A stretch of DNA of 64,000 bases from an uncultured Isosphaeraceae bacterium (GCA_964507445.1 CAZDQF010000020.1:6528-70527), one strand, 5' to 3'; counted from the first letter of the stretch, positions 6,271-62,790 are shown. The notes: generated by a model from the letters alone, not told the origin. Numbers and translations are program-made.

Positions 6271-6359
6271 GTGATCCTCTACGGGCTCACTATACGGTTC
6301 GACCACCAGATCCCGAGGATGGAGTCCCATCCTCCCCGCCACACCGAAGTTTCGGGCTC

Positions 6360-6677
6360 TCAGGGGCTGGTCGGGTAGCTCTGGCGCCACAGCTCGAAGC
6401 CTCCGGAGAGGCTCCGGGTACCGGTCAGTCCTTTCTCCGACAGGTAGGCCGTGGCCCCCTTGCTGGCGTTGCCGTGGTGGCAGTAGACGATCACGGGAGA
6501 GTCGGGACCGAACTCCGCGCAGAGGGCGTCGACGTCGGCTTCGGAGGTCAGGTGTCTGCAGCCCGGGATGTGGGCGGTGGCGTGACTGGCGGGGTCTCTG
6601 ATATCCACGAAGACCGCCGTCTCCTTCTCCAGGAGGTCCTTGGCTTCGTGGATGTCGATCTCGGATACGTCCTGCAT
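6360..6677 (-). CDS. single-domain rhodanese-like sulfurtransferase (GlpE/PspE-like)
   Basis: The 105-aa product has a rhodanese layout and an active-site loop, IVYCHHGNASKGA (Cys followed by 5 residues). Confidence 0.85.
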   Translation of the reverse strand: MQDVSEIDIHEAKDLLEKETAVFVDIRDPASHATAHIPGCRHLTSEADVDALCAEFGPDSPVIVYCHHGNASKGATAYLSEKGLTGTRSLSGGFELWRQSYPTSP

Positions 6678-6684
6678 GGTCGAT

Positions 6685-7614
6685 TCAGTCCGTCTTGAAC
6701 AGGTCCTTCAGCACCGATCTTACAACCGTGGTGTCGCTGCTGGGGTAGTTGGCTCGGATGATGCCGGCGAGCTTCTCACACTCCTCCGCCACCGTGAGCA
6801 TGCCTATCGGTCGGCGGTCCGGCCTCCTGCGGGTCATGCGTTGGACCAGCCTCGCTACAGGCTTGCTGACCTTTGCGTGCAGCTCTCCCAAGGGGATGTT
6901 GCGTTCATTGAGGGTCGCCTTGAAGAGCTCTGTGGTCTGGTGTCCGTCCAGGCTCAAGGGGCCGGTCAACATCTCGAACAGGATGACGCCCAGGGAGTAG
7001 ATGTCCGTGCGCGCGTCGATCTCGTCTCCGAGGATCTGCTCGGGGGCGGAGTAGGCCGGGGTGCCGATGTAGGTGCCGATCCGCGTGATCGCGGTGTCGG
7101 CGTGGAGGTCCTTGGCGATGCCGAAGTCCAGCACCTTCACCCGCTCATCCGATCTCCGGATCATGACATTGGACGGCTTCAGATCACGGTGGATCATGCC
7201 CGCCTCGTGTGCCGCCGACAGGCCCGCTGCGATGTCGCGGGCGATGACCAGGGCGTGCTCCGGGGGGAAGGCCTGGCCGTCCTCCATCAGATCCCAGAGC
7301 GTCTGGCCGTCCACGTACTCGAGGATGATGAACGGCTGCACGCCGTGGTACCCGAGGCCGTGGACGCGAACCAGGTTGGGGTGGCGGAGCCGTCCGAAGG
7401 TCCCACCCTCCCGGCGAAACCGGGTGCGCAACGCGTCGTTGCGCGTGGCGTCCGGGTGCAGGAACTTGACCGCGATCTGTCGCGAGCGCTTCAGGTCCAT
7501 CGCCAGCCAGATGGAGCCTCCCGCCCCTTCTCCGAGGAGGCGCTGAAGCTCAAATCGATCGTCGTTGCCGACCCGTCGTCCGATTTGATCCTGGCCGTCG
7601 GAGGGGTGTGACAT
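6685..7614 (-). CDS. Ser/Thr protein kinase (Hanks type), kinase domain only
   Basis: Motifs seen: GEGAGGSIW..AVKFL, HRDLKPSNVMI, DFGIAKD, GTPAYSAPE. Confidence 0.9.
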   Translation of the reverse strand: MSHPSDGQDQIGRRVGNDDRFELQRLLGEGAGGSIWLAMDLKRSRQIAVKFLHPDATRNDALRTRFRREGGTFGRLRHPNLVRVHGLGYHGVQPFIILEYVDGQTLWDLMEDGQAFPPEHALVIARDIAAGLSAAHEAGMIHRDLKPSNVMIRRSDERVKVLDFGIAKDLHADTAITRIGTYIGTPAYSAPEQILGDEIDARTDIYSLGVILFEMLTGPLSLDGHQTTELFKATLNERNIPLGELHAKVSKPVARLVQRMTRRRPDRRPIGMLTVAEECEKLAGIIRANYPSSDTTVVRSVLKDLFKTD

Positions 7615-7668
7615 GGCACGATTCTAACCCGATCCTCGGCGCCGTCGACGCTTGGAAACGGCGGCAGG

Positions 7669-10089
7669 TCAGAGGTAGCGGAAGCGTTTGCGCAAGATCC
7701 ACTCGACGGTGAGCAGCGCCAGGAAGATGATCGGGAGCCACCTGAGCCAGGGGCTCTCCTCGTCGCGGAGATGCGTGAACTGGCGTTGCCGAGGAATCTC
7801 CACGGTCCCGGAGGCCACGTCGTCGAGCAACGACCTGGCCCCGTCGAGGGTCACATAGGAGCCGGAGGTCCGACCGGCGATGGTCTTGAGGGTGACCTCG
7901 TCCAGGATCGGTTCGCGGCGCTCCACGTCCGACGTGGTGACGAGGAATGACACCGGTGAGAGCTTCTCGTCCGAGAGCCCGTCCTCGGGCTGGATCCAGG
8001 CGTGATAGTCACCGGTCACGGAGCCGTGGAACGAGTGCTCGAAGACACCCGGCTGGACCTTGCGCAGGCGGATGGTCTCTCGACGACCCGAGGACTCCGG
8101 GTACTCCAGGATCACCTCCTGGTCGGCCTTGTCGGACGGCCGATAGGTGCGGTCCTTGATGTAGGCCGTGAGGGTGATCAGGTCGCCCTGCTGATACCTG
8201 GTCCGGTTGGAGACGAGCCTGAAGCGCTTGTCTCCCTGGAACAGCCGCGCCCTCGCCAGGTGGCGCACCACGTTGCCCCAGAACCGGTGGTGGGTGAACG
8301 GGCCCTCCCAGGCGAACCAGCGCCACGTCGCGTCCAGGGCGGTGAAGAACACCGGGCCCTCGCCGTAGGTGCCGGCCACCAGGATGGGGTACGGGCCGTG
8401 GAGGTTGCGGTCGCTCTCGTGGACCGCGAGCACCTGGCTGCCCGGCTTGGCCTTCTTCACCCGCGCGAACCAGTACAGCTCCTCGAGCCGATCCGGTTCG
8501 TTGCGGTCTTCCCAGATGCGCCGGTTGCGATCCGGGTCCTTCTCGTCGTCTTCGATCTGGGTGATCGGGTGGTTCACCCCCATGGGGGTGAGCTTCACTC
8601 TGAAGCCCAGGTCGTCACTGCCTCCCGCTTCCTCGCTCGGGTCGATGAGCACGGGGAGGATGTCAGCCAGGGGTGTGTCCTTGAACGCCCGCGGACTGAA
8701 CCGGTCTCCGGCGACCATGGCGAAGCCGCCGCCCTCCGCGACGAACTCCCGGATCAGAGCCATGTTCTTACGCGCCTTCTCCGGGTCCGCGGCGGAGAAC
8801 AGGTCGCTCATGGGGTCCACGTCACCGAAGATGATGACGTCGTACCAGAACAGCTCCTCCTTGCTCGCGGGGAACTGGGTGAGCGGCTGCAGGTTGCCGG
8901 CGCCGAGGGTCGACTCCTGGGGGAACCCGTGATCCGCCTCCAGCAGCAGGCACTGGCAGATGAAGGCGTCGTTGGCGCGGACCAGGAAGTCCTTCAGGGA
9001 GCGGTACTCCCACCTGGGGAACGACTCCACGTAGAGCACCTTGATCTTCTGGTCCTTGACCAGGACCTCGATGACCCGGGAGTTGTTGTCTTCGGTGTGC
9101 TCCGTGGGGATCGGCTGCACCCGCACGGTCCAGCGCTTGCGGCCCTCTGAGAGCGGGCGGTACAGCATCCTGAACGGCTGGTCTTCCTCGCTGGCGCTCA
9201 AGGTCACGCGCTGGCGATGGATGACGTTGTCGTTCTCCAGCAGCTGCAGGGTCACCTTCTCACCGGGGAACCCTCGCTGCCGCACCTTCAGGTCGATGCT
9301 GACCGTGTCTTCGACGAGCACCACGCTGGAGTGGAGCACGGAGGTGAGCTCGATGTCCTTGGTCGCCTTCGGGTCGCCGACCCCGACGCAGTGCACCGGG
9401 ATCTTGCGGCGGGCCGCGATCTCCACCACCTCCGCCGGAGGCGGCCCGGCGGTGTTCTTGCCGTCCGTGATGATGACCACGCCGCCGACGGAGGAGCTCT
9501 TGACCTCCGGCTCGTCGAGGATGCGTTCCAGGGTGCTCCCGAGGGTCGTGACCCGGTCTCGGGGCTCCAGGTCGGCGATGCCGGAGATGCCCTGCAGGCG
9601 CTCGCCGAAGGAGTAGAGGCGGACCCGGTTCTCCTCCCCGAGCTTCTCGAGGAAGGGCACCTCGCCTTCACCGAGCACCTTCTTGACCAGGCCGAGCCGG
9701 GTCAGGCTGTCCAGCGGGGTGCCGGCGGGGAGCTGGGCGGCGCCTCGGAGGCGGTCCGCCAGCCCGGGGTTGGTCTGGTAGTCGTCGTTGTGACCCATGG
9801 AGGCGCTGGCGTCGACCAGCACGATGGTGAGCGTCGGCTTGCGCTCCACCACGGTGGTCTGCATGGCCGGGTCCATGAGCAGGAGCGCCACGAAGATGAG
9901 GACCGCGATGCGGAGCAGCGTCAGCCCGTGGCGGACCAGCGCCGGGACGCCTTCGCGGCCCATCCGATAGAACACGGCGGCGAACCCGATGACGGCGGGG
10001 ACGATGACGAGGAAGATGACCCAAGTCGGGGGAGCGCTGCGGAACACCAGCCCTTCCGACACCACCTCCGATTCCAGCAACCAGGTCAT
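7669..10089 (-). CDS. membrane-anchored von Willebrand factor A (vWA) domain protein of the Bat/aerotolerance-type cluster
   Basis: This is track ORF 7669..10179. I place the start at MTWLLESEV at 10089, where it forms an ATGA overlap with the upstream stop. It has N-terminal TM helices and a vWA MIDAS-like motif, IVLVDASASMGHND. A C-terminal TM helix is also present. Confidence 0.75.
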   Translation of the reverse strand: MTWLLESEVVSEGLVFRSAPPTWVIFLVIVPAVIGFAAVFYRMGREGVPALVRHGLTLLRIAVLIFVALLLMDPAMQTTVVERKPTLTIVLVDASASMGHNDDYQTNPGLADRLRGAAQLPAGTPLDSLTRLGLVKKVLGEGEVPFLEKLGEENRVRLYSFGERLQGISGIADLEPRDRVTTLGSTLERILDEPEVKSSSVGGVVIITDGKNTAGPPPAEVVEIAARRKIPVHCVGVGDPKATKDIELTSVLHSSVVLVEDTVSIDLKVRQRGFPGEKVTLQLLENDNVIHRQRVTLSASEEDQPFRMLYRPLSEGRKRWTVRVQPIPTEHTEDNNSRVIEVLVKDQKIKVLYVESFPRWEYRSLKDFLVRANDAFICQCLLLEADHGFPQESTLGAGNLQPLTQFPASKEELFWYDVIIFGDVDPMSDLFSAADPEKARKNMALIREFVAEGGGFAMVAGDRFSPRAFKDTPLADILPVLIDPSEEAGGSDDLGFRVKLTPMGVNHPITQIEDDEKDPDRNRRIWEDRNEPDRLEELYWFARVKKAKPGSQVLAVHESDRNLHGPYPILVAGTYGEGPVFFTALDATWRWFAWEGPFTHHRFWGNVVRHLARARLFQGDKRFRLVSNRTRYQQGDLITLTAYIKDRTYRPSDKADQEVILEYPESSGRRETIRLRKVQPGVFEHSFHGSVTGDYHAWIQPEDGLSDEKLSPVSFLVTTSDVERREPILDEVTLKTIAGRTSGSYVTLDGARSLLDDVASGTVEIPRQRQFTHLRDEESPWLRWLPIIFLALLTVEWILRKRFRYL

Positions 10090-12353
10090 GCTTCCCTCCT
10101 TCGAGAACGCATGCCGAAGATCTGAGACAGGGCGGTCTCGATGGCCAGCACGGCGGCGCCGAACAACAGGAACCACCACCAGCTTCGGCTGGACCGGTCA
10201 GAGGCGGTGGCCTCCTCCACACCTTCGATGCCGTCCAGGAACCGCACGCCCTCGCCGGGGAAGCTGGCGACGATGTAGTCCTCGTCCACGCGGGACAGGT
10301 CCGACTCCTCGGCGTCCACGTTGACCGCGATGTGGATGGGGTTGGGGTCCTTGAGCTCTGCCTCACCCGTGCGTTGGAGGTCCAGCCGGTAGGTGCCGGC
10401 CTTGTCGAGGTTGCCCGTCTTGATCTCGTAGCCCCGCTCGTCTTCGACGGCCAGGGGCTTGACCACGCTCAGCTGTTCCCCGTCTCTCGAGATGACGACC
10501 TCCTGGACGAAGGAGCGGAGCAGGCGCTCGTAGGATTGCCCCACGAGCAGGTTCTCGTGACGCTCCTCCTTGCGGGTGAGGTAGTAGGACAACTCGCGGG
10601 CGAGCAGCAGGTACGTCGGCAGCGACTGCATCCCGTTCCAGTTCTCGTCGCCGCCGGCGGTGGCGAACAGGATGCAGCGTCCCTTGCCCAGCACCTTCTC
10701 CAGGATGAGCGGCTCCGGCGTGGGCAGCGCGGCCTTCGGTCGGTCAAGGTAGGCGAGCACCGACACCGCCGGGTCGTCCGGGACCTCGACGCGGTAGTAG
10801 CGGTAGACCGGCGTGGCCACCGTCAACCAGACGGAGATGGCCGGGTCGGCGAAGTAGCTGAGCGCCGGGTGTTCCAGGTTGGGACGGGTGATCTGGAACG
10901 GGAGGTCCATGAACATGTCCTCGCCCGCCGCCGCCCGCAGCTTGGCAGGCAGGACGCCCTCGCCGTTGCGGTAGAGCCGCTCGTTGGCGGTGGTGGCCTG
11001 GGTCTTGTCGCCGACGAACACCAGCAGGCCCCCACCTGCTTCGACGAAGCTCTGGATGTCTGCCGCCCGTCGCGGAGAGATCAGGGCCACGTCCATCAGC
11101 ACCAGCAGGTCCACCTCCTTCAGGTCGGCGCTGTCGAAGCCCACCTCCTGGACCACCTCGAGCTCGAAGTCGCTCCCGGAATCCCGGTCACCACCGGGGC
11201 TCATGGCGGCGCTGAAGAAGAACGACTCGGACTCGCCCGGCTCCGGGCTGGGGTCGCCGTCCACGACGAGGGTCTTGATCTTGCGGCGCACCTCGAGGGC
11301 GAGGCCCCTGCGGTTGTCCTTCGCCAGGCTGTCGGACCGGAACCGGGCCTCCACGTAGTGGCTGCCGGCGGACCGGAACGGCTGACGGAACTCGACGGAG
11401 TAGAGGCCTCCCGGCGGGATGGCCTCCACGTCCCGGAGGTCCACGGGCTCCGACGCACCGTCCACGAAGAGGTGCACCGCGCCGCCCTGGGGGCGGCTGC
11501 CGAAGTTCTGCAAGGTGACCGTGATCGCCGCCGGAGTGCCCGTCACCACGGCCTTGCTGCGCTTGGACACGGAGATGATGGCCACGTTGTCCGTGGTGGT
11601 GTCCGCCGGGCCCACGATGTTCAGCGTCGCCTTCCGCGCGCGCACCTCCTGGACCAGGGAAGCCAGAAGCTGCTGCGGCGGCGCCGCGTCGCCCTCCTGG
11701 TCCTCCTGCGCCACGTCCGAGGGCGGAGCGAACCCCACCTTCTGAAGGTCGGAGAAGACGAACACCTCGGCCCCCTCCTCCAGGTCGTCGAGGGCGGCCA
11801 CGGTCGAGCGCAGGGCGCCGATGAGATCGGTCGCGCCGTCCCCCGCGTCCATCCCGTCCACGACCGTGAGGACGCGGTCCAGATCGGACACCTGCTTGAG
11901 GACGAGGCTCGCAGGCTTTCCGGCGGTCACCAGGGTCACGGAGTCACCCCGCTCCTGTTGCAGCCCCTCGATGAGCTCGCGGACCTGCCGTTTGGCCCGG
12001 CTCATGGGAGTGCCGCCGTCGGACTCGGCCAGGGACATGCTGAAGCTGTCGTCCACCACCACCACCACCTCGCGGGGGCCGCCGCCCAGACCGCCGATGA
12101 TGGCGCCAGGGTTCAGGCGCGGGGCGGCGAGGGCCAGCACGAACAGCAGGATGGCCAGGATGCGCAGCAGCAGCAACAACAGGTGCTCGAGGCGGATCCG
12201 CCGCTGCGTCTTCTTGAACGCCCGCAGCAGAAACTCCATGGCGGCCCAGGGGACCTTCTTGTAGCGCTGCCGTGCGAACAGGTGGATGAGGATGGGGATG
12301 GCCGCGGCGCCGCCCCACAACAGCATGCTCGGGATTCCAAAGAGGCTCCCCAT
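10086..12353 (-). CDS. BatA-N-terminal-domain / vWA-like membrane protein
   Basis: The N-terminus is MLLWGGAAAIPILIHLFARQRYKKVPWAAMEFL (aerotolerance regulator BatA N-terminal signature). It also carries VVVVVDDSFSMS. It sits directly after DUF58 and MoxR. Confidence 0.8.
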   Translation of the reverse strand: MGSLFGIPSMLLWGGAAAIPILIHLFARQRYKKVPWAAMEFLLRAFKKTQRRIRLEHLLLLLLRILAILLFVLALAAPRLNPGAIIGGLGGGPREVVVVVDDSFSMSLAESDGGTPMSRAKRQVRELIEGLQQERGDSVTLVTAGKPASLVLKQVSDLDRVLTVVDGMDAGDGATDLIGALRSTVAALDDLEEGAEVFVFSDLQKVGFAPPSDVAQEDQEGDAAPPQQLLASLVQEVRARKATLNIVGPADTTTDNVAIISVSKRSKAVVTGTPAAITVTLQNFGSRPQGGAVHLFVDGASEPVDLRDVEAIPPGGLYSVEFRQPFRSAGSHYVEARFRSDSLAKDNRRGLALEVRRKIKTLVVDGDPSPEPGESESFFFSAAMSPGGDRDSGSDFELEVVQEVGFDSADLKEVDLLVLMDVALISPRRAADIQSFVEAGGGLLVFVGDKTQATTANERLYRNGEGVLPAKLRAAAGEDMFMDLPFQITRPNLEHPALSYFADPAISVWLTVATPVYRYYRVEVPDDPAVSVLAYLDRPKAALPTPEPLILEKVLGKGRCILFATAGGDENWNGMQSLPTYLLLARELSYYLTRKEERHENLLVGQSYERLLRSFVQEVVISRDGEQLSVVKPLAVEDERGYEIKTGNLDKAGTYRLDLQRTGEAELKDPNPIHIAVNVDAEESDLSRVDEDYIVASFPGEGVRFLDGIEGVEEATASDRSSRSWWWFLLFGAAVLAIETALSQIFGMRSRRREA

Positions 12354-12356
12354 GAG

Positions 12357-13255
12357 CTACCGGGCTCCCGTCCGCTGGGCCAGATAGGTGCTGAGGGCGA
12401 CGTCCAGGGAGCGCGAGGTGTCGAGCACCACGTAGTCCATGCGCCCGCCGATGCAGGCTGACTTGATGCGCGTCTGGAACTCGGTCAGCTCCTTCTGGTA
12501 GGCCTCCCTCAGCGCCCTCGGGTCCGCCAGCACGCGGGCGTCCACCTCGAGGCCCTCGAAGCGGGTCATGCGTTCGAACGGGAACTCCAGCTCGTCCTTG
12601 TCCAGGACGTGGAACACGATGACGTCATGGCCGCGATGGGCCATCCGGTGCAGACCGCGCAGGATGCCGTCTTCGTTCTCGTCGAACAGGTCGCTGAGCA
12701 CGATCACGAGGCTCTTGGTGCGCAGCCGTTCGGCGATCTCGTTGAAGATGGTCCCCAGGTCCGTCTCTCCGTCCGGCTCCTGCCCGGAGAGCTCGGACAG
12801 GCAGTTTCGGAAGTGCGCCTGGCTGCTGGACGGGGGAAGGAACGTGCGCACGCCTTCGCCGAAGGTCACCAGGGCGCCCGCGTCCCGCTGCTTCTGCACC
12901 AGATACAGCAGCGCCGCCGCCACGAACTTGGAGTAGTCGAGCTTGGTGACCTCGTCGGACCCGTAGGCCATGGACTTGGAGGTGTCCACCACCACGTAGG
13001 CCTTCAGGTTGGTCTCTTCCTCGAACTCCTTGATGTAGTAGCGGTCGCTCTTGGCGTAGACCTTCCAGTCCAGGTAGCGGATGTCGTCGCCGGGGACGTA
13101 CTCCCGGTGCTCCGCGAACTCCACGGACGATCCCTTGTAGGGGGACTCGTGCAGCCCGGACATGAACCCCTCGACGATCAGGCGCGCCTTGACCTCGAGG
13201 TTCCCGACCTTGTTCAGGACCTTGGGGTCGAGGTACTTGCTGTAGTCCTCAGCCA

Positions 13256-13256
<1 letters not shown>
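12357..13256 (-). CDS. DUF58 family protein (MoxR-associated, vWA-like)
   Basis: Motifs seen: GLHESPYKGSSVEFAEHREYVPGDDIRYLDWKVYAKSDRYYIKEFEEE (canonical DUF58 core). Its start shares one nucleotide with the MoxR stop (TGATG). Confidence 0.9.
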
Positions 13257-14284
<1,028 letters not shown>

Positions 14285-14410
14285 CTGGTGAGCCTCGTTT
14301 CGCTGTTGCGGGGAGTTCGGGAGTCTAACAACGGATGGCTTCGGTCAGCCGCGGTTCGTCTTCGGGCGCCGGCGGGCCCGGGCTCGCTGCCCCCCCCGTA
14401 GGGGTGGGGG

Positions 14411-34053: not shown

Positions 34054-34126
<73 letters not shown>

Positions 34127-34136
34127 CTCCTACACA

Positions 34137-34404: not shown

Positions 34405-34535
34405 TTGGCGCGCAGGGCGCAGGCCGAGGTTGTTGTCGGCGTTGTCGGGGTCGTTCCCGTTGCGGTTCGCAGAGCGTGCGTTGCGGGCGTCGTTGTTGAA
34501 GCTGCCGCCGCGGTTGACGCGTTTGCGGGCGCCTT
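34405..34535 (-). repeat. DGR template repeat (TR), about 129-131 nt, starting 32 nt downstream of the RT stop
   Basis: I hand-aligned it to 36647-36777 (offset 2242). Read in the VR frame it encodes ...GARKRVNRGGSFNNDARNARSANRNGNDPDNADNNLGLRPAR with 10 AAC codons. All differences from the VR fall on TR adenines (T on the plus strand). Confidence 0.9.
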
Positions 34536-34567: not shown

Positions 34568-35551
34568 TCACGGAGGGTGAAACCAGCTACGTCGCAGGGC
34601 TCTGGTTGATCCATGGCTGAGGTGTTCTGTCACGGACCGGATCGCCGCCGCCAGCTGTTCGTCGCTGATCAGGCCGGCGTCGTTCTGGCGAAGGCGCTGC
34701 GCGACGCGTTTGCGCGTGCGCCGCAGGTTCTCCGGGCGAAGGCGGCGCGTACCGCCGTACAGCCGCCAACCAAGAAACGGCAGTCCGCAGCGAGCGGGGG
34801 CGAGGATGGTGGCCCGTTCCTTCAGCGCCAGCCCGAGCTCATCGCCCAGGTACTGCTCCACCTCCCCACGGGCGTAGCGCAGCCGATCCCTGTCGTCATG
34901 GAACAGCACCATGTCGTCCATGTAGCGGACATAGCCCGGGACCCGCAGGGTCTGCTTCACTCGATGATCCAGCCGGGAGAGCACCATGTTGGCGAACCAC
35001 TGGCTGGTGAGGCTGCCGATGGGCAGGCCCACGCCGCCGTCACCGAGGGTCGCCATCACCAGATCGAGCACGCGACGGTCTTTGATCACACGAGCGATCG
35101 TGTCGGCGACGACGGAGTGCCGCAGAGACCCGAAGAAATGGCGAACGTCCATCTTCAAGAACCACTCGTGGGCTCGTAAAGCGCGTTGCGCATGGTCGAG
35201 CGCGGCGTGGGTACCCTTGCCACGGCGACAGGCGAAGGACTCGTGGATCATGCGCCGGTCCAGGTGTGGTTCCAGGATATCGATCAGGGCGTGATGAACG
35301 ACCCGGTCGCGGAACGGCGCAGCGACGATGAGCCGTTCCTTGGGGTCCGAGATCCGGAAGCAGTTCGGTCGGCCAGGACGCCATGCGCCCGACAGGAGCT
35401 CTCGCTGCAACGCGAGACACTCGAATTCTCGGCGGTCCATGAACCGAGCGACCACGGCGGCGTGACGCTTGCCCTGGGCGGCCCGCTGCGCCGCCCGCAG
35501 CAGGTTGTCGAACGCGATCACGTCGCGCCACAACCCTCCGACCCGTCTCAT
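34568..35551 (-). CDS. DGR-type reverse transcriptase
   Basis: I place the start at MRRVGGLWRDVIAFDNLLRAAQRAAQGKR at 35551, overlapping the avd stop (ATGA). Motifs seen: RISDPKERLIVAAPFRDRVVHHAL, LPIGSLTSQWFANMVL (the DGR-RT hallmark [IL]GxxxSQ) and YVRYMDDMVLF (YMDD catalytic box). Confidence 0.93.
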   Translation of the reverse strand: MRRVGGLWRDVIAFDNLLRAAQRAAQGKRHAAVVARFMDRREFECLALQRELLSGAWRPGRPNCFRISDPKERLIVAAPFRDRVVHHALIDILEPHLDRRMIHESFACRRGKGTHAALDHAQRALRAHEWFLKMDVRHFFGSLRHSVVADTIARVIKDRRVLDLVMATLGDGGVGLPIGSLTSQWFANMVLSRLDHRVKQTLRVPGYVRYMDDMVLFHDDRDRLRYARGEVEQYLGDELGLALKERATILAPARCGLPFLGWRLYGGTRRLRPENLRRTRKRVAQRLRQNDAGLISDEQLAAAIRSVTEHLSHGSTRALRRSWFHPP

Positions 35552-35964
35552 GAGACCTGCTCCACGGCGGGTCCGCCGGCGTCTCGCCGGGCATCGATCG
35601 TCATGCGCCAGCCATGGATCATGCGACCGGCCTCGTCGAGTCCACGCATGGCTGCCTCGAATCCGCGTGTCGGCATCACCTGGGCGTCCCGAGCGATGCG
35701 ACACAGGAAACGCATGCGCTCCATGCACAGGTTCACCTGGCGTAGGCTGCGTTCGCGTTCCCGTGGTTCATAACGAGACACCACCAGTCCCTCGACGACG
35801 TCGAGCGCGAGGTTCTCCACCCGTTGCGCCAGGGTGAAGCGGGCCGACTTGGGCCACTTTCGGGTGTGGTCGAGGAGCCATCCGGTGAAGCGTTCCCAAT
35901 GCTGCGCCACCAGCAAGTCGGTGGTCGCCTCACGGGCGCCCGGACGCCCGAGAGGAGCGCTCAC
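35548..35964 (-). CDS. avd: Avd-like DGR accessory variability determinant (four-helix-bundle, 23S rRNA intervening-sequence protein family)
   Basis: The GTG at 35964 overlaps the HRDC gene stop (GTGA). The 138-aa product reads ...HWERFTGWLLDHTRKWPKSARFTLAQRVENLALDVVEGLVVSRY....LRQVNLCMERMRFLCRIARDAQVMPTRGFEAAMRGLDEAGRMIHGW. It is basic and helical and sits immediately upstream of the RT, as in characterised DGRs. Confidence 0.8.
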   Translation of the reverse strand: MSAPLGRPGAREATTDLLVAQHWERFTGWLLDHTRKWPKSARFTLAQRVENLALDVVEGLVVSRYEPRERERSLRQVNLCMERMRFLCRIARDAQVMPTRGFEAAMRGLDEAGRMIHGWRMTIDARRDAGGPAVEQVS

Positions 35965-36521
35965 GACGAGCTCTCCTTCTCGGAGTCCCTGGTCCCTGGA
36001 TCCGCAGCCGCCAGCCTCTCGAGGATCGGCCCACCATGGCGCTCCAGCTTCGCCTTGCCGATCCCCTCGACATGCCCGAGCGCCGTCAGGCTGTCCGGCG
36101 CCGCCTTGATGATGGCGACCAGCTCTTTGTTGGTGAGCACGACGTAGGGAGGCACTCCCTCGTCGAGGGCCTTGCTCTGCCGCCACTCTCGCAGGGTGTC
36201 GAACTGCTGTCGTTGGCGCTCGTCGAGCCCGTCGCGGGGATCGGATCGGTCGCGGCCCTTGCCAGGCCTTCGTCCGCTGTTCTCCGTCGTTCGGTGAGTG
36301 TCGGTCGGCCCGGGACATTCCAAGGCCCGCCACGTCAGCACGCACAACAAATGGGCCACGCCGTTCACCAGGAAGAAGTGATCCTTGAAGGTCAACAACT
36401 CCTTGTCGGTGACGAATCGGTCCAGGGGTGTCGCATCGAAGCCGCCGAGGGTGGAAGAGTAGCGGAGGGTCATTAGTTTCAAACGCATGGCGGGAACCCC
36501 TGCCCCACCCCCGCCCTCCAC
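35961..36521 (-). CDS. HRDC-domain DGR accessory protein
   Basis: The C-terminal sequence LREWRQSKALDEGVPPYVVLTNKELVAIIKAAPDSLTALGHVEGIGKAKLERHGGPILE matches the HRDC (helicase and RNase D C-terminal) pattern. The N-terminal ~60 aa are unassigned. The start may be the internal ATG at 36488 or the one at 36473. Confidence 0.75.
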   Translation of the reverse strand: MEGGGGAGVPAMRLKLMTLRYSSTLGGFDATPLDRFVTDKELLTFKDHFFLVNGVAHLLCVLTWRALECPGPTDTHRTTENSGRRPGKGRDRSDPRDGLDERQRQQFDTLREWRQSKALDEGVPPYVVLTNKELVAIIKAAPDSLTALGHVEGIGKAKLERHGGPILERLAAADPGTRDSEKESSS

Positions 36522-36634
36522 GCAAGCGGGTTTCTGATTTTTTTCCCATCCACCCTACGACATTTGGATCGCCACGTCCCGGCTACGCACGGGACGGGCG
36601 CTCCCAGGGGGGAAGTGGTGAAGTGGTGAAGGAA

Positions 36635-39600
36635 CTAAGGCGTGATCCGGCGCGCAGGGCGCAGGCCGAGGAAGAAGCCGGCGAAGCCGGGGGCGCCCCC
36701 GAAGCGGACCGCAGAGCGAGCGAGGCGGGCGTCGTAGCGGAAGCAGCCGCCGCGGCGGACGCGAAAGCGGGCGCCTAACCAGTGGGTGCCCAGGCCGTCA
36801 CCGGCGCGGGGCCGCCGTTCGGCGTAGAGGCCGTAGCCGTCCAGGCACCACTCCCAGACGTTGCCGTGGACGTCGTGGAGCCCGAACGGGTTTGGCTTCA
36901 GGGCTCCCACCGGGGCCAGGTTGATGAAGCCGTCGTTGAAGTCTCGTTGCAAGGTGCCGCCGCTGTAGCGCCGGGCGCGGGCGTCGTCGCCGATGTTGGC
37001 GTAACCGGTGAGGGACTTCAGGTCATCCCCGGTGGAGAACCGGGTGGTGGTGCCCCCTCGGCACGCCCGCGCCCACTGGGATTCCGTGGGCAGCTCCAGG
37101 CCCCAGCGGCGGCAGGCCTCCCGACTCTGGGGCCAGGAGACGTTGGTGACCGGCATGCGCGGGGTCATGCGCTCGCCCTGGTGGGTTTCCCCCGCCCGGT
37201 AGTGGGACGGGCTGTCGGCACTCAATCGCTTCCACTGCCCCTGGGTCACCTCGTGCTTGGCGATCAGGTAGGCGTCCAGGGTGACCTCGTGCACCGGGCC
37301 TTCGTTGTCGTAGACCTGATCGTCCACGTTGGGGGAGCCCGCGGGGTGGTCCTTGTCCGGAGATATCGCCCCCATACGGAACGTCCCCGCCGGGATCAGC
37401 ACCATGACCATGCCTTCGGCCCCCGAGTCGGGGTGCAGCTTCACCTTGCCTGGCCCCAGGGGTTCGCCCTCCCACTGCGGCCGTTGGCCGCTGGCCACGT
37501 GCCAGAACTCCCACAGACCGGAATCCCGGTCACGGCCCAGGGGCACCAGCGCCGGGATCGGTTTGAACTCGAGGTCGTGGTAGGGGGGCTCGGGACGAGA
37601 CAGGTCCGCCAGGCAGCGGCGCCAGGCCTCGGCATCGTCTTCCGCCAGCCGCCGCTCCAGGGCCACGGCGTCGGTGAGACGCTGCTCCATGCCGGAAACC
37701 GTCACCGTCTTCGCCGTCGGCTCCGCCGTCAGCGCGACCAACCCCGACACCAGGTCCCGCAGCTTGTCGTGACGCAGCTGGTCACCCTCGTCGGTGAAGG
37801 CCCACGACGACTTCACCGCGGTCGCGGCTTCCAGTCGCGTTCGCTCCGCGATCAACCCTGCGACCACCTTCATAGCGTCTTCTATCGATACTTCTGCGGC
37901 TTCGATCCGCTGTCGCAGGCGCTGCAGGGCCCGTGCTTCGCCAGACGTCAGGTCGTCGTTGTCTTCCTTCGTCTCAAGAGGCGCGAGCTCCGCCGACAGC
38001 TCCCTCTTCGCGCCCTCGGCGTCTCTCACCGTCGCTTCCGCCTTCGCCACTTCCGCGTGTATCACTCCCAATCGTGCGTGTGCGGCTGCCATACGCGCAC
38101 GATCCTCGTCGGCGTCGTACGTCCCTCGAACCCGCAGGGCCTTCAGTGCGGCTTCGTGCTCCGGCAGCCTTGCGGTCAATGCGCGTGTCTTGTCCAACCA
38201 AGCACGGTAGGCAGGGATGTTCTTCGGCACCACAGGCCACAGCGGACCGTCGGCTTCCTCCCGGCGGTCGTCGAGCCGACGACCGTCTGCTAGGCGTTCC
38301 CACTCGGTGAGGTGCGCGGCGGCCTTCGCCGCATTGGCTTCCGCTCGGAGCGCGAACGCCGTTGCTGCGCTCGCCCCCACGATCAGTATTAGCGCTGCGG
38401 CCCCGGTCATCGTTGCCAGGGCCGGGTTGCGCTGACCCCACCGAGCCAGTCTTGTCAGGGCGGACGCGGCACGCGCCTTGATGGGCTCGTGTTCGCGGAC
38501 ACGGCGTAACTCTTCGGCCAGGTCCAGCGCCGTCTGGTAGCGGCGGTCCCGGTCCTTCTCGAGGGCGGTGGCCATGACCACGGCCAGGTCCTTGGAGATG
38601 GCCGGGTTGAGCTTGCGTGGGTCCGAGGGTTCCCGGGTGGCGATGGTCTGAAACAGGCCTTGTCGGGTGGGGGAGTCGAAGGGGCGGCGGTAGGTCAAGA
38701 ACTCGTAGAGCACCACGCCCAACGACCAGACGTCGGTGCGGCGATCGAGGGTGACGGCGTTGTGGAGGAGCTGTTCCGGGGACATGTAGGCCGGGGTGCC
38801 GAAGAGGTCCCCCGCCCGGGTGAGGGTGACGCCCTCTCCGAGGGTGTCGTGGGCGAGGCCGAAGTCCAGGATCACCGGGGTGTCGTCGTCGCGGATCATG
38901 ACGTTGCCCGGCTTGATGTCGCGGTGGACGACGCCGGCTTCGTGGGCGGCGTGGAGCGCGCGGGCGATCTGCTCGACGATGCGCAGAAGGTGATCTAGTT
39001 TGGCTCCGTCGGGACCTGAGAGGTCGGTCGCCGTTCTCGAGTCATCGTCGGCCTCGTCGTCCGTCACGTCGAGGTCATCGTCGAACGAGGCGTGGAAGCT
39101 CTCCGTCGCGCCCCCGGTCGCATCCCGCATGGCGTTGATGGCGTCGGACAGGGCCTTGCCCTCCACGAGCTGCATGGCGATGAACGGCACCCCGTCCTCG
39201 ATGCCGCTCTCGTAGACCGAGCAGATCCCCGGGTGCTGCAGACGCGCCGCCACCTCCGCCTCGCGCTGGAAGCGGTTGATGGCGGCGCCCAACCCGGGGC
39301 CACGGATGTCCAAGATCTTCAAAGCCACGGAGCGGTTGAGGCGCTCGTCCCGGGCCTTGTAAACCACCCCCTGACCGCCCTGGCCGAGCATGGCCTCGAC
39401 CCGGTACGACCCGAACGTGGCCCCCACCTTCAGCAGGCCACCGCCCCCTTCGCCACCCACCGTGTCCCCTCGCACGACCTCCGCCACCTTCCGGGCGATG
39501 GTCTCCTCATACCCCGGGGACAGGGCCTGGTACGACTCGACCGACTGCAACCCTTCTCCAGCACGGTCCTCTTCCATCCGCGCGAGCAGGGCCGCCAGCA

Positions 39601-39682
39601 CGGCGGCGGGGAGCGGGGTCTCATCCGTCACGGGCGATTCTCCATGGCGGTCAGGAGCTGCCTCAAGGGCGATCCGCCCCAT
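36635..39682 (-). CDS. DGR target: transmembrane Ser/Thr protein kinase with extracytoplasmic coiled-coil region and C-terminal FGE-sulfatase-type C-type-lectin-fold domain carrying the VR
   Basis: Kinase motifs: GQGGQGVVYKA, VALKIL, HRDIKPGNVMI, DFGLAHD, GTPAYMSPEQ. There is one TM helix (LATMTGAAALILIVGASAATAFAL) and a long helical segment. The FGE-type domain reads GTFRMGA...HEVTLDAYLIAKHEVTQGQW...VTNVSW..A..CRW...LPTESQWARACRGG...HDVHGNVWEWC...RVRRGG. Confidence 0.92.
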   Translation of the reverse strand: MGRIALEAAPDRHGESPVTDETPLPAAVLAALLARMEEDRAGEGLQSVESYQALSPGYEETIARKVAEVVRGDTVGGEGGGGLLKVGATFGSYRVEAMLGQGGQGVVYKARDERLNRSVALKILDIRGPGLGAAINRFQREAEVAARLQHPGICSVYESGIEDGVPFIAMQLVEGKALSDAINAMRDATGGATESFHASFDDDLDVTDDEADDDSRTATDLSGPDGAKLDHLLRIVEQIARALHAAHEAGVVHRDIKPGNVMIRDDDTPVILDFGLAHDTLGEGVTLTRAGDLFGTPAYMSPEQLLHNAVTLDRRTDVWSLGVVLYEFLTYRRPFDSPTRQGLFQTIATREPSDPRKLNPAISKDLAVVMATALEKDRDRRYQTALDLAEELRRVREHEPIKARAASALTRLARWGQRNPALATMTGAAALILIVGASAATAFALRAEANAAKAAAHLTEWERLADGRRLDDRREEADGPLWPVVPKNIPAYRAWLDKTRALTARLPEHEAALKALRVRGTYDADEDRARMAAAHARLGVIHAEVAKAEATVRDAEGAKRELSAELAPLETKEDNDDLTSGEARALQRLRQRIEAAEVSIEDAMKVVAGLIAERTRLEAATAVKSSWAFTDEGDQLRHDKLRDLVSGLVALTAEPTAKTVTVSGMEQRLTDAVALERRLAEDDAEAWRRCLADLSRPEPPYHDLEFKPIPALVPLGRDRDSGLWEFWHVASGQRPQWEGEPLGPGKVKLHPDSGAEGMVMVLIPAGTFRMGAISPDKDHPAGSPNVDDQVYDNEGPVHEVTLDAYLIAKHEVTQGQWKRLSADSPSHYRAGETHQGERMTPRMPVTNVSWPQSREACRRWGLELPTESQWARACRGGTTTRFSTGDDLKSLTGYANIGDDARARRYSGGTLQRDFNDGFINLAPVGALKPNPFGLHDVHGNVWEWCLDGYGLYAERRPRAGDGLGTHWLGARFRVRRGGCFRYDARLARSAVRFGGAPGFAGFFLGLRPARRITP
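36647..36777 (-). repeat. DGR variable repeat (VR) at the 3' end of the target gene
   Basis: It encodes ...LGARFRVRRGGCFRYDARLARSAVRFGGAPGFAGFFLGLRPARR. It matches the TR except at 28 (30 if extended by 2 nt) positions, all of them TR adenines. It ends about 10 nt before the stop codon at 36635-36637. Confidence 0.9.
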
Positions 39683-39781
39683 ACGACATGGAAGCAGACT
39701 ATCCGATGGGCCACCACTACGGAATGGCGGTGGAGTTCCACAGCAGGTCTACGCTTTCCGGGCCCGGGTAGTCTGGTGCCC

Positions 39782-40894
39782 ATGACGATCTCGTTGCTGG
39801 CGTGGGTGATCTGGACGCTGCCCTTCGGGGCGGATGAGGGGCTATACGGGGCGTCGACGGCGGTGCCGCCCGTGACCTCGGTGGTGGTGGACGGTGAGCG
39901 ATTCGGCGCTGAGGCAGATGAGGCCGGCCCGATCGGGGGAGGGGCGGGATACGGAGCGGTGGTCACCACGGGGGCGCGGGTGGTCAAGGACCTGGACGGC
40001 CTGGTGCAGGCCCTGTCCGAGGCGAAAGCGGGGGACGTGGTGTTCGTACCGGGGAATGTGGTCATCGACTGCACGGCCCGTTGCCTGATCGAAGAGCTGG
40101 TGTTGGAGGTGCCCGCAGGGGTCACGTTGGCGAGTGACCGGGGGAAGGGAGGCTCGCCGGGAGCGCTCATCTTCTCGGATCATCTGGCGACCCGTCCGTT
40201 GATCCGCACCCAGGGTCCTGGAGTGCGCATCTCGGGGCTTCGCTTGCGAGGGCCGGACCCGGAGCGTCGCCTGGATCATCATCGGCGCGCGTATCGCGGC
40301 ACCCGCAAGCGGGACCCGGACTACTACTACAGCCTGCCCACGTCTGATGGGATCGAGGCGCGTCACGGTAGTCTCGAGGTGGACAACTGCGAGCTGGCGG
40401 GCTGGAGCCACGCCGCGGTGTTTCTGCGGCGCGGAGAGGGGCACCACATCCACCACTGCTTCATGCACCACAATCAACGCCAGGGTCTCGGGTACGGCGT
40501 CTGTCTGGATGTGGCGGTGGCGTTGATCGAGCGCAACCTGTTCGACTGGAACCGTCACTCCATCGCCGCAACGGGCCGTCCGGGGAGCGGCTACGAGGCC
40601 CGCCACAATGTCGAGCGAGGGGAGTCCCTGAGCCACTGCTTCGACATGCACGGGGGGCGTGACCGCCGCGACGGGACCAACGTGGCGGGTACGTGGATGA
40701 ACGTCCATCACAACGCGTTCTTCTGTCCCCGGCGTGCGCTGGTGGTTCGGGGCGAGCCCGAAAAGGAGGCTCGCGTCCATGGGAACTGGTTCTTTCATGA
40801 CACGCCGGGAGCGGCGGTGCGGGGAGAGAAACGGACGGTCCTGGGGGCCAACGCCTACGGCCTGAAGGCGCCGAAGATCCGGCGGGGTCCTTAG
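39782..40894 (+). CDS. right-handed parallel beta-helix repeat protein (pectate-lyase-fold), secreted
   Basis: I trimmed the start to MTISLLAWVIWTLPFG at 39782. The rest of track ORF 39092.. overlaps the DGR target on the opposite strand. It has His/Gly-rich beta-helix rungs (GWSHAAVFL, HHCFMHHNQRQGLGYGV, NRHSIAATG, SHCFDMHGG). Confidence 0.7.
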   Translation: MTISLLAWVIWTLPFGADEGLYGASTAVPPVTSVVVDGERFGAEADEAGPIGGGAGYGAVVTTGARVVKDLDGLVQALSEAKAGDVVFVPGNVVIDCTARCLIEELVLEVPAGVTLASDRGKGGSPGALIFSDHLATRPLIRTQGPGVRISGLRLRGPDPERRLDHHRRAYRGTRKRDPDYYYSLPTSDGIEARHGSLEVDNCELAGWSHAAVFLRRGEGHHIHHCFMHHNQRQGLGYGVCLDVAVALIERNLFDWNRHSIAATGRPGSGYEARHNVERGESLSHCFDMHGGRDRRDGTNVAGTWMNVHHNAFFCPRRALVVRGEPEKEARVHGNWFFHDTPGAAVRGEKRTVLGANAYGLKAPKIRRGP

Positions 40895-60705: not shown

Positions 60706-62421
60706 TCAGCTCGGAGCACCGCGGTCGCTCTCCAGGACCTTTCGAACCATGCGGCCCAGATCCTGCATCGCCATGGGCTTGGCGATGAAGTTGTTGTCCA
60801 CGTCGAGGGCCTCGGCGTTCGCTTGATCTTCGGCCGGATAGCCGGACATGTAGAGGACCTGCATATCCGGCCGATCCTCCCGGATGCGGGCGGCCAACTC
60901 GCGGCCGTTCATCTCAGGCATCACCATGTCGGTGAGCAGCAAGTGGATCCGTCCCTGGTGTTCCTCACTCATTCGTGCGGCATCCGTGGGCAGTCCTGCC
61001 TCCATGACTCGGTAACCCAGACGAGTCAGGGTCTGGCCAAGGAGGCGTCGGACTCGATCTTCGTCATCCACGATGAGGATCGCTTCATTGCCCCGTGACT
61101 CGTCCCGTGCCCGACCCAGGTGCGATTCCCTGACCTCGGTCCTGGTTGGTGCCAGCGGAAGGAAAACCGAGAAGGACGTCCCTTCTCCCACCTCGCTCTC
61201 CACATGGATCGAACCGCCGCTCTGGGCCACGGTCCCGTACACGGCGGCCAGTCCGAATCCGGTCCCCTTGCCCGTGTCCTTTGTGGTGAAGAACGGTTCG
61301 AAGATCCGGGGGAGGTCTTCCGCTGCGATGCCGCAACCGTTGTCTCTCACCCGAAAGAGCACGCGATCTCCCGTCGGGTCCTCCACGCAACCCGACGAGT
61401 CCCCCCGGTTCATCCGCACCCTCCGCGTGTGGATTTCGATGCGGCCGGTGCCACCCAGAGCGTCGCGAGCGTTCACCACCAGATTGACCAGCACCTGTTC
61501 GAATTGCGCAACGTCCAGCTTCACGCGCGGCAACGCCGACGCCAGGGATGTCACCAGGTCAATGCTGGACGGGACGAGCCGTCGCAGCATCTTGATGGTG
61601 TCGGAGATCAGCTTGTTGAGGTCCGCCACCAGGGGGACCATGGGATGTTGCCGGCTGAAGGTCAGCAGACGGCGGGTCAACTCGGCGGCGCGCTCGGCGG
61701 CCAGGCACATTTCGTTAACGCCGTCGGCGAGATCCGGCTTGACATGGTCGCTCTCGCGCACGAACTCGCCGTAGCCCATGATCACCGTGAGGAGGTTGTT
61801 GAAGTCGTGGGCGATGCCCCCAGCGAGCATGCCCAACGCCTCCATCTTCTGTGATTGGTGCTGCCGAACCTTCGACTCCCTGAGCTCCTCCTCCGCGGTC
61901 TTCTGTAGCGTGATGTCACGGGTCGATCCGAATACGACAAGGACGCCATCCTCGCGGCGGTTGACCCGCATGCGTTCTTCGAGCCATCGCAACTCCCCGG
62001 ACTTGGTGACGATGCGAAACTGGTGTTCCGAAATCCCCTCGGGGCCCTTGACTCGACCAAGCGCGAACGACAGGTCGTCCGGGTGCACCAGCCTCTGCAG
62101 GCCGATGTCGGAGAACTCCTCGGTGCCGTAACCCGTCAGCCGTTCGAACGACCCCGTGATCCACTCGCGATGGGAGCGACCATCGGGATACTCCAGCCGC
62201 ATCCAGCAGCAATCGGCGGTGAGCTCGGAGACCGCCCTCAGGCGGCTGGCCAAGGTCTCCCAGTTGGGCGCGGAACCGGTCCCTTCTTGGTCCCCCTCGA
62301 TCGGGTCATCCCCGGGTTGGTTCGGTTTCCCCATAGGATTGTCTGCCGTCACTCCCCATCCAGCCCACCCATGCGTCGCGGATTGTACCTCTCGTTGGCG
62401 GCGACGTCCCCTTGTCGGCAT
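60706..62421 (-). CDS. hybrid sensor histidine kinase (PAS - HisKA - HATPase_c - receiver)
   Basis: The PAS region has HPDDL...ISEHQFRIVTKSGELRWLEER. The H-box is GGIAHDFNNLLTVIMGY. The N and G boxes are NLVVNARDA, DNGCGI and GTGFGL. The receiver reads ILIVDDEDRVRR...LLLTDMVMPEMNG...MSGY. Confidence 0.9.
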   Translation of the reverse strand: MPTRGRRRQREVQSATHGWAGWGVTADNPMGKPNQPGDDPIEGDQEGTGSAPNWETLASRLRAVSELTADCCWMRLEYPDGRSHREWITGSFERLTGYGTEEFSDIGLQRLVHPDDLSFALGRVKGPEGISEHQFRIVTKSGELRWLEERMRVNRREDGVLVVFGSTRDITLQKTAEEELRESKVRQHQSQKMEALGMLAGGIAHDFNNLLTVIMGYGEFVRESDHVKPDLADGVNEMCLAAERAAELTRRLLTFSRQHPMVPLVADLNKLISDTIKMLRRLVPSSIDLVTSLASALPRVKLDVAQFEQVLVNLVVNARDALGGTGRIEIHTRRVRMNRGDSSGCVEDPTGDRVLFRVRDNGCGIAAEDLPRIFEPFFTTKDTGKGTGFGLAAVYGTVAQSGGSIHVESEVGEGTSFSVFLPLAPTRTEVRESHLGRARDESRGNEAILIVDDEDRVRRLLGQTLTRLGYRVMEAGLPTDAARMSEEHQGRIHLLLTDMVMPEMNGRELAARIREDRPDMQVLYMSGYPAEDQANAEALDVDNNFIAKPMAMQDLGRMVRKVLESDRGAPS

Positions 62422-62790
62422 GGCTCATCAACTTCGAGACGCGCCGGTCTCCCAAGGCGCGGAATGTCACGTGCGGGACGAAGAATGCGAAGGGCTCGGT
62501 GCCGCTGACGACCTCCTCCAATCAGGAGCTCTCGCGACGCTCCACGGCGAGTTCGCGCTGCTCGGTCTCGGTGACCGCTGCCACCAGGTCCGGCTCGTTG
62601 CGCGTTGAAGAGAGATACAGCCGCCAGTTGCTCTGGATGGGCGAGGGGAGGAAGCGGTGGCGGAGCTCCACACGAGGGTCACCGTGAGCGTGCACGGGAG
62701 GTGGTTCCTGGATGGGTCCCTCTCGTGACCGACCATCCATGCCCGTGTGGCAGGCGATGAGAATCCGAGCTGAAACCGCCGCGTCCCGCG

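Follow-up and report, generated by a model that had tools for sequence, protein, structure and literature searches.

We analysed a 64,000-nt stretch of DNA from an uncultured Isosphaeraceae bacterium (GCA_964507445.1, CAZDQF010000020.1:6528-70527; the whole stretch is called the window) and found a diversity-generating retroelement (DGR) whose target gene encodes a Hanks-type Ser/Thr kinase of 1015 amino acids (aa). The evidence makes it probable that this chromosomal DGR, which carries HRDC and Avd accessory genes in the manner of the Treponema element, diversifies the periplasmic binding face of a single-pass Ser/Thr kinase receptor. In the mechanism that we propose, the reverse transcriptase (RT) would copy the RNA of the template repeat (TR) while misreading its adenines, and the resulting cDNA would replace the variable region (VR) of the target, so that as many as 16 binding-face residues could change. 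The last 44 codons of the gene would thus supply a variable ligand-binding face, and a ligand bound in the periplasm would signal through the transmembrane helix, most likely because the receptor changes its oligomeric state; phosphorylation of the activation loop at T286/T288 would then switch the kinase on. The features of the target gene and of the retroelement are as follows.

36635..39682, minus strand: DGR target gene, encoding a 1015-aa single-pass transmembrane Hanks-type Ser/Thr kinase with a predicted periplasmic ectodomain of helical and C-type-lectin (CLec) parts (open reading frame translation, Pfam)
38495..39406, minus strand: kinase domain, aa 93-396, from G-loop to SPE (PknB 1mru alignment, Foldseek, homologue conservation)
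38345..38422, minus strand: predicted transmembrane helix, aa ~421-446, preceded by a conserved juxtamembrane R-W-x-Q-R-N-P (Kyte-Doolittle)
37583..38344, minus strand: helical bundle, predicted extracytoplasmic, aa 447-700, with conserved W-E-R-L-A-D and L-W-P-x-x-P (AlphaFold)
36638..37582, minus strand: beta-strand extension (aa ~712-748) and CLec domain of the formylglycine-generating enzyme (FGE) type (aa ~755-1015) (Pfam, PDB sequence matches, Foldseek)
36649..36776, minus strand: VR, aa 969-1012, the last 44 codons, with 16 diversifiable codons (128-nt TR match)
36572..36598, minus strand: GC-rich hairpin, candidate target-recognition element, ~50 nt downstream of the VR and conserved in three VR-bearing genes
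35961..36473, minus strand: HRDC-domain accessory gene (Pfam HRDC, E = 1.3e-16; a called gene in public contigs)
35548..35916, minus strand: Avd accessory gene, 122 aa (Pfam bAvd, E = 1.3e-12)
34568..35533, minus strand: DGR RT, 321 aa in public calls (Pfam RVT_1; YMDD box and I-G-S-L-T-S-Q-W-F-A-N)
34407..34534, minus strand: TR, downstream of the RT, with 30 adenines, mostly in AAC codons

The comparison of TR and VR shows adenine-specific mutagenesis. Over 128 nt, the two repeats differ at 27 positions, every one of them a TR adenine (27 of the 30 adenines and none of the 98 other bases), and the probability that all 27 mismatches would fall on adenines by chance is (30/128)^27, or about 1e-17. 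Nearly all of the substitutions (25/27) are located at codon positions 1 and 2, and the diversifiable codons are mostly AAC. The final ~20 nt of the VR and TR are identical and GC-rich, and three codons separate the end of the VR from the stop codon. No second VR was found within the 64-kb window.

The cassette runs in the order target, HRDC, avd, RT and TR, and the combination of HRDC with avd is the rare 'architecture C' that is typified by the Treponema DGR (PMC5758913). We employed a 327-aa RT query, extended from an upstream ATG, and found 3654 RT relatives, mostly from Planctomycetota; the motif residues S-Q-W and N are invariant in 31 relatives. The Avd protein scored 76.7 bits against the NCBIfam model DivGenRetAVD, whose cut-off is 80. 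The genes around the DGR have housekeeping functions (shikimate pathway, enolase, folate synthesis, sulfatase), while phage or plasmid functions were absent among the scanned open reading frames (ORFs) of the window, and consequently the DGR looks like a cellular, chromosomal element. At ~280 nt past the TR, a tRNA-Met gene (34054-34127, +) faces the DGR operon from the other strand, the two being convergent.

The target gene is intact. Its ORF starts with an ATG and remains open for 1015 codons, and public gene calls begin either at the same ATG or at a GTG located 17 codons downstream (39631), giving 998 aa. An identical, intact protein is found on 24 contigs (15 from JGI and 9 from NCBI/ENA), which represent at least seven samples. 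Therefore, a sequencing frameshift is excluded: an earlier note on this DNA, made from the sequence alone, had proposed a 1015-aa DGR target while allowing that the ORF could be split, and the 24 contigs agree that it is whole. Pfam assigns a Pkinase domain to aa 93-383 (E = 1e-40) and an FGE-sulfatase domain to aa 760-1011 (E = 3e-41). For the kinase as well as for the RT, nearly all named homologues belong to metagenome-assembled genomes (MAGs) of Planctomycetota. Among the matches listed from a genome-collection scan with whole-protein alignment, only L008, L009, L014 and L042 are related across the greater part of the protein. Upstream, the kinase gene is divergent from a 370-aa ORF (39782-40894, +) that has a weak beta-helix match and no significant Pfam match. 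The intervening gap of ~100 nt (39683-39781) must hold the promoter of the DGR operon.

The N-terminal domain is an active-looking Hanks kinase that is predicted to be cytoplasmic. It contains GQGGQG at 100 and all the motifs by which it was first recognized (VALK at 119 with K122, HRDIKPGN at 253, DFG at 273 and PAYMSPE at 297). The earlier note had allowed that catalytic residues might be missing, and residue-by-residue alignment recovered the full Hanks set: G100/G102/G105 of the G-loop, K122 as the VAIK Lys, E141 as the alpha-C Glu, H253-R254-D255, N260 as the catalytic Asn, D273-F274-G275, S301-P302-E303 as the APE-like motif, D317 as the alpha-F Asp and R381 as the conserved Arg. Across the aligned family of 68 members (the window protein and 67 homologues), these residues are invariant except for G100, G105 and S301, and G100 is more than 90% conserved. 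The domain aligns with M. tuberculosis PknB (1mru; E = 5e-43), and T286 and T288 coincide with two threonines of the PknB activation loop, which we take to be the phospho-sites T171 and T173. An AlphaFold model of the window protein has a mean pLDDT of 86.7, and its kinase domain superimposes on PknB and PknA with TM-scores of 0.86-0.88 (Foldseek). The domain also contains an acidic, disordered insert at aa ~185-231, where the pLDDT falls below 50 at aa 192-220.

We found that the window kinase is probably not the only receptor that this DGR serves, although the earlier note had implied a single diversified protein. Two paralogous kinases on other scaffolds, P0002 and P0012 (64 and 43% identical to the window kinase, respectively), have no adjacent DGR. 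Compared to the window TR, the VR of P0002 has 16 differences at adenine positions and 2 elsewhere, and the VR of P0012 has 20 and 1. The three genes also have in common ~75 nt past the VR, including the hairpin, which folds in all three with one compensatory stem change (C:G to G:C) and occurs as a single copy within the window; it is a candidate for target recognition. P0012 is located on scaffold_8 and the window DGR locus on scaffold_510 of the same assembly (ERZ23498664), and the tetranucleotide correlation between the flanks of P0012 and the window (r = 0.990) matches the correlation within the window (0.988), compared to 0.33-0.93 for other Planctomycetota loci. P0002 and P0012 are probably in the same genome as the window DGR. 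Because the VRs of both match the window TR, the most economical reading is that there are five or more paralogous receptor kinases, of which a single DGR probably diversifies no fewer than three.

Other paralogues are not matched to this template. In the tandem pair P0003/P0004 on scaffold_66 (r = 0.973), which is probably also part of this genome, the VR-equivalent regions show 35-38 non-adenine mismatches to the TR, which is no match. Between the window kinase and P0002 (L007 176-3103), conservation amounts to 86% for the lectin domain, 62% for the helical region and 53% for the kinase domain, and P0002, P0004, P0012 and P0016 have an identical transmembrane segment with differing ectodomains. 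An ectodomain that is better conserved than the kinase, together with a shared transmembrane segment, suggests mosaic evolution among the paralogous kinases.

The same type of target recurs among relatives of the RT. We surveyed 80 metagenome loci that encode RT relatives and found that L088, L089 and L098 (RT identity 55-60%) each have a full target, with kinase, transmembrane, helical and CLec parts, upstream. L091, which is also among the closest RT relatives at 55-60% identity, has a transmembrane STAND version: its DGR target (3570-8411) combines an nSTAND1 NTPase and a transmembrane helix with the same helical and CLec ectodomain. The ectodomain of L091 thus points to a periplasmic module that is common to kinase and STAND outputs. 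L094 and L103 carry truncated copies with helical and CLec parts. In the related loci, the TR is located downstream of the RT, and the differences between TR and VR favour adenines. A planctomycete in culture, Engelhardtia mirabilis (L168, CP036287.1, 6090233-6109276), carries the same cassette of HRDC, avd, RT and TR between two kinase-NACHT-CLec targets; these targets have no membrane helix, and their VRs are also adenine-biased (18/25 and 16/17 mismatches).

The earlier note had suggested comparing the variation of the C-terminal tail with the conservation of the kinase and stalk; in the 67 homologues, variation falls mainly on the TR-adenine codons, with the residue bias that AAC mutagenesis would produce. 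Across the 68 family members, the entropy at codons containing TR adenines is 3.45 bits, compared to 1.51 bits at the scaffold codons of the VR and 1.88 bits for the remainder of the lectin domain. The five residues that are unreachable from AAC (K, E, Q, M and W) account for 6.3% of residues at the ten AAC positions, compared to 21.3% in other high-entropy columns of the ectodomain (Fisher p = 8.5e-24), and the commonest residue at these positions is Asn. Taken together, the entropy and the AAC residue bias make much of the kinase family look DGR-shaped. We tentatively suggest, as a possibility that falls short of the better-supported reading of the window itself, that one DGR maintains a small rewritable repertoire of paralogous periplasmic receptor kinases (in this case the adjacent gene and at least two remote ones), and that a large share of the Planctomycetota transmembrane kinases with FGE domains may owe the diversity of their binding sites to DGR mutagenesis, a link that is new to the literature on planctomycete kinases.

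Several observations weigh against the proposed receptor mechanism or limit its parts. Among the window ORFs scanned, Pfam matched no ECF sigma factor, FHA protein or PP2C phosphatase, and an ECF sigma factor considered as an upstream partner in the window was rejected after a phmmer search of all window ORFs found none. The assignment of the remote targets to the same genome is based on a shared assembly and on composition, and the topology is based on hydropathy and family conservation, with an AlphaFold model that has low confidence at aa 420-440. VR variants were also absent: the protein is identical across the 24 contigs, which are consensus assemblies; its 90% cluster has no second sequence; and in eight related clusters, which include both remote targets, 24 informative comparisons show strain variants that differ at 0-8 residues, never in the last 50 aa.

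A possible signalling partner emerges from other loci. An ECF sigma gene is located directly upstream of both P0012 and the Engelhardtia target, making the ECF sigma factor, by analogy, a reasonable candidate for the kinase substrate; a genome scan found ECF sigma genes upstream of many unrelated kinases too. The ECF sigma gene at the P0012 locus (L169 4562-14144) belongs to PF07638, and P0012 is flanked by two kinase-TPR genes.

The strongest alternative, which we nonetheless consider unlikely, is an immune-like role: the periplasmic variable domain would detect molecules of phages or competitors in the manner of an 'antigen' sensor, and the output of the kinase would be defence or an arrest of growth, in place of the usual sensing of the environment. 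STAND NTPases, which are hallmarks of conflict systems, are also diversified within this RT clade (the nSTAND1 of L091 and the kinase-NACHT-CLec targets of Engelhardtia mirabilis), and such targets are read as antigen sensors in the literature (PMC10907252, PMC7159879). The window kinase domain itself matches the PD-T4-6 and MADS6 defence-kinase models, but these matches (E = 7e-84) are confined to the generic kinase domain. Moreover, no effector or defence gene adjoins the locus, whose neighbours are housekeeping genes, and the VRs are stable between strains, unlike the prediction of an arms race.

In a second alternative, the DGR is dormant or a relic, the VRs, written in the past, are now fixed alleles, and the protein is an ordinary sensor kinase of fixed specificity. 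The VR identity across 24 contigs and at least seven samples agrees with it, as do the 24 within-cluster comparisons, where drift was observed at other positions and VR differences were not, and the VR-equivalents of P0003/P0004, which no longer match the TR. Against dormancy, the RT, Avd, HRDC and TR are all intact, the element downstream of the VR is conserved, and outside the adenines the three VRs differ from the TR at only 0, 2 and 1 positions, even when synonymous sites are counted. So little drift outside the adenines, in three VRs, points to homing that has been recent, or repeated, on an evolutionary scale. Because consensus assemblies hide minority variants, the identity of the VRs is no proof of dormancy. 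We consider a dormant element improbable, somewhat more so than an immune-like role. Its evidence does bear on the earlier note's proposal that retrohoming re-programmes what the cell senses: with a VR that is identical on 24 contigs and invariant in eight clusters, re-programming in ecological time is only a possibility.

We next consider where the variable face is located. The window protein has a single strong hydrophobic segment, with its best 19-residue window at aa 427-445 (Kyte-Doolittle 2.08) and a net charge of +3 on its N-terminal flank. The single transmembrane helix proposed in the earlier note corresponds to this segment, and its position shifts from aa 405-430 to aa ~421-446, about 15 residues further towards the C-terminus. 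Of the 68 homologues, 67 have a hydrophobic peak of 1.6 or more at the equivalent position after the kinase. An exhaustive HMMER search for the helical module found 1919 cluster representatives at E <= 1e-3, and we scored the top 150 with hidden Markov models built locally from the family alignment: a hydrophobic helix is located no more than 120 residues upstream of the module in 141 of them, and a kinase is carried by 127. DeepTMHMM places the FGE-type domain of planctomycete kinases in the periplasm (PMC11032199). The conserved helix, its positive flank, the L091 module and the published DeepTMHMM predictions together suggest that the variable face is periplasmic, in agreement with the earlier prediction of a mutable pocket outside the cytoplasm. 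In a diderm cell, the variable face is most likely exposed to the periplasm, and not at the cell surface.

Alternatively, the hydrophobic segment might not span the membrane, and a cytoplasmic CLec domain might choose the substrates of the kinase or act as its autoinhibitor, a role that has been proposed for the kinase-CLec targets of cyanobacteria. In favour of this arrangement, predictions put most of those targets in the cytosol (PMC7517822), no strong hydrophobic helix is present in the kinase-NACHT-CLec targets of Engelhardtia, and AlphaFold confidence is low at aa 420-440. This arrangement is nevertheless very unlikely, as it is opposed by a hydropathy of 2.08 sustained over 19 residues, by a peak kept in 67 of 68 homologues, by the published topology predictions, which favour the periplasm, and by L091, where the helical and CLec module is located behind a hydrophobic helix even when the cytoplasmic domain is a different one.

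The predicted ectodomain is a well-defined structure. Modelled alone (aa 447-1015), it has a pLDDT of 94.8 and a pTM of 0.87, and its helical bundle leads, through a short extension of beta-strands, into a lectin fold of the FGE type. The ~300-aa helical stalk described in the earlier note is retained as a helical region of ~250 aa (aa ~447-700), which AlphaFold models with confidence as a folded bundle and not as a simple rod. Foldseek matched the ectodomain model to FGE (E = 1.6e-18) and to the Treponema denticola DGR target TvpA (E = 1.1e-16, TM-score 0.70); the top 50 matches are all FGE-like, and no informative match to the helical bundle was found among the Foldseek results. By sequence, the lectin domain matches TvpA (2y3c) with E = 2e-17, and a gapless alignment pairs the window VR with the VR at the C-terminus of TvpA. 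The Pfam match, the TvpA fold and the VR at aa 969-1012 all agree with the FGE-type CLec domain, with its VR at the C-terminus, that had first been proposed.

Alignments to human and T. curvata FGE show that the loop with the two FGE catalytic cysteines, which in human FGE we take to be C336 and C341, is deleted from the window protein. The only nearby cysteine, C980, is a variable residue, where a Ser codon of the TR (AGC) has become TGC in the window VR. A deleted cysteine loop and a variable C980 indicate that the C-terminal domain is a binding module and not an enzyme. The idea that it is an enzyme (formylglycine-generating, EgtB or PvdO-type oxidase), as suggested by its Pfam FGE-sulfatase match, its public name 'SUMF1/EgtB/PvdO family nonheme iron enzyme' and a sulfatase gene located 8 kb from the kinase locus, is scarcely credible in light of these cysteines, of scores far under the cut-offs of the NCBIfam enzyme models and of a C-terminal region that is overwritten by adenine mutagenesis.

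Elsewhere in the window, a second Hanks kinase of ~300 aa (6688-7614, -) is soluble, and the short ORF that follows it appears rhodanese-like by eye, with no Pfam match. A stop-to-stop ORF of 1630 codons (1795-6684, -) has TPR and PQQ beta-propeller matches. We considered whether the stop at 6685-6687 splits a single gene into the second kinase and the PQQ/TPR part, as in a pseudogene, and rejected it: read on in frame past the stop, the sequence makes no sense, and the short ORF that follows starts from an ATG of its own. The stop is a genuine gene end. An operon at 7672-14344 (-) encodes a MoxR-type AAA ATPase, DUF58, VWA/BatA and GATase1-like proteins, resembles the Bat aerotolerance genes and adjoins enolase. 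A hybrid histidine kinase with PAS, HisKA, HATPase and receiver domains is located at 60709-62424 (-).

If the proposed reading is true, a bacterium can alter what a receptor recognizes without altering its signalling machinery and, if the family-wide suggestion is also true, Planctomycetota would possess a bacterial counterpart of a diversifying receptor-kinase family. The locus offers several resources: three natural VR alleles on related scaffolds, two paralogues without a TR match as internal controls, a high-confidence ectodomain model, and a cultured species with the same cassette type, Engelhardtia mirabilis, as a possible laboratory model.

The earlier note had stated that genome surveys contain kinase-linked DGR targets, mostly in cyanobacteria, and such targets are indeed reported. 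One architecture with a kinase was listed by Wu et al. (2018), cyanobacterial kinase-CLec targets were detailed and mostly predicted to be cytosolic (PMC7517822), kinase-containing targets occur in Thiohalocapsa (PMC10907252), and a 2024 MAG survey lists 'Pkn1/PknD' targets (PMC11661182). Our literature searches found no functional study of kinase-CLec DGR targets. Separately, among the accessory domains of planctomycete kinases, the 'sulfatase-modifying factor' domain ranks third in frequency, in a survey that leaves DGRs unmentioned and in whose text 'retroelement' is absent (PMC11032199). Kinase-CLec DGR targets and periplasmic FGE-domain kinases of Planctomycetota are thus already published; moderately novel are the predicted periplasmic location of the sensor, the probable targeting of several paralogues and the signature across the family.

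The window kinase resembles the cyanobacterial targets (Vallota-Eastman et al. 2020, PMC7517822) in its N-terminal Hanks kinase and diversified C-terminal CLec domain, and both systems have families of paralogues with adjacent and remote targets. It differs from them by its conserved membrane helix, its helical ectodomain module, its phylum and the neighbourhood of its RT. It agrees in architecture and predicted topology with the Planctomycetota transmembrane kinases that have a periplasmic 'sulfatase-modifying factor' (PMC11032199); unlike that work, our analysis identifies the domain as a DGR target within a family that has a DGR-type variation signature. The STAND/NACHT 'antigen sensors' of multicellular bacteria (PMC10907252, PMC7159879) are comparable in that members of the related RT clade target nSTAND1 or kinase-NACHT-CLec proteins, that DGRs have multiple targets and that CLec is the sensor domain. 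The window protein, in contrast, lacks an NTPase domain, has the layout of a plain receptor kinase and adjoins no effector genes.

The closest solved kinase domains are those of the PknB/Stk1 PASTA kinases, which are likewise single-pass RD kinases with two activation-loop threonines and an extracytoplasmic sensor, a location that is predicted for the window protein. Their sensor consists of PASTA repeats, while that of the window kinase is a helical bundle and a variable CLec domain; Pfam found no PASTA domain in the window kinase, and the NCBIfam model PknB_PASTA_kin scored 246 bits (cut-off 450), with a match limited to the kinase domain.

TvpA is a small lipoprotein that is not known to have a signalling domain. 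The window CLec domain, in contrast, belongs to the ectodomain of a 1015-aa transmembrane kinase, where it follows a ~250-aa helical bundle. In the remaining respects compared, the Treponema denticola DGR and TvpA (2y3c) are alike to the window system: an HRDC-containing cassette of 'architecture C' (PMC5758913), an FGE-type fold with a beta-strand N-terminal extension, a VR at the extreme C-terminus and the use of non-adjacent targets.

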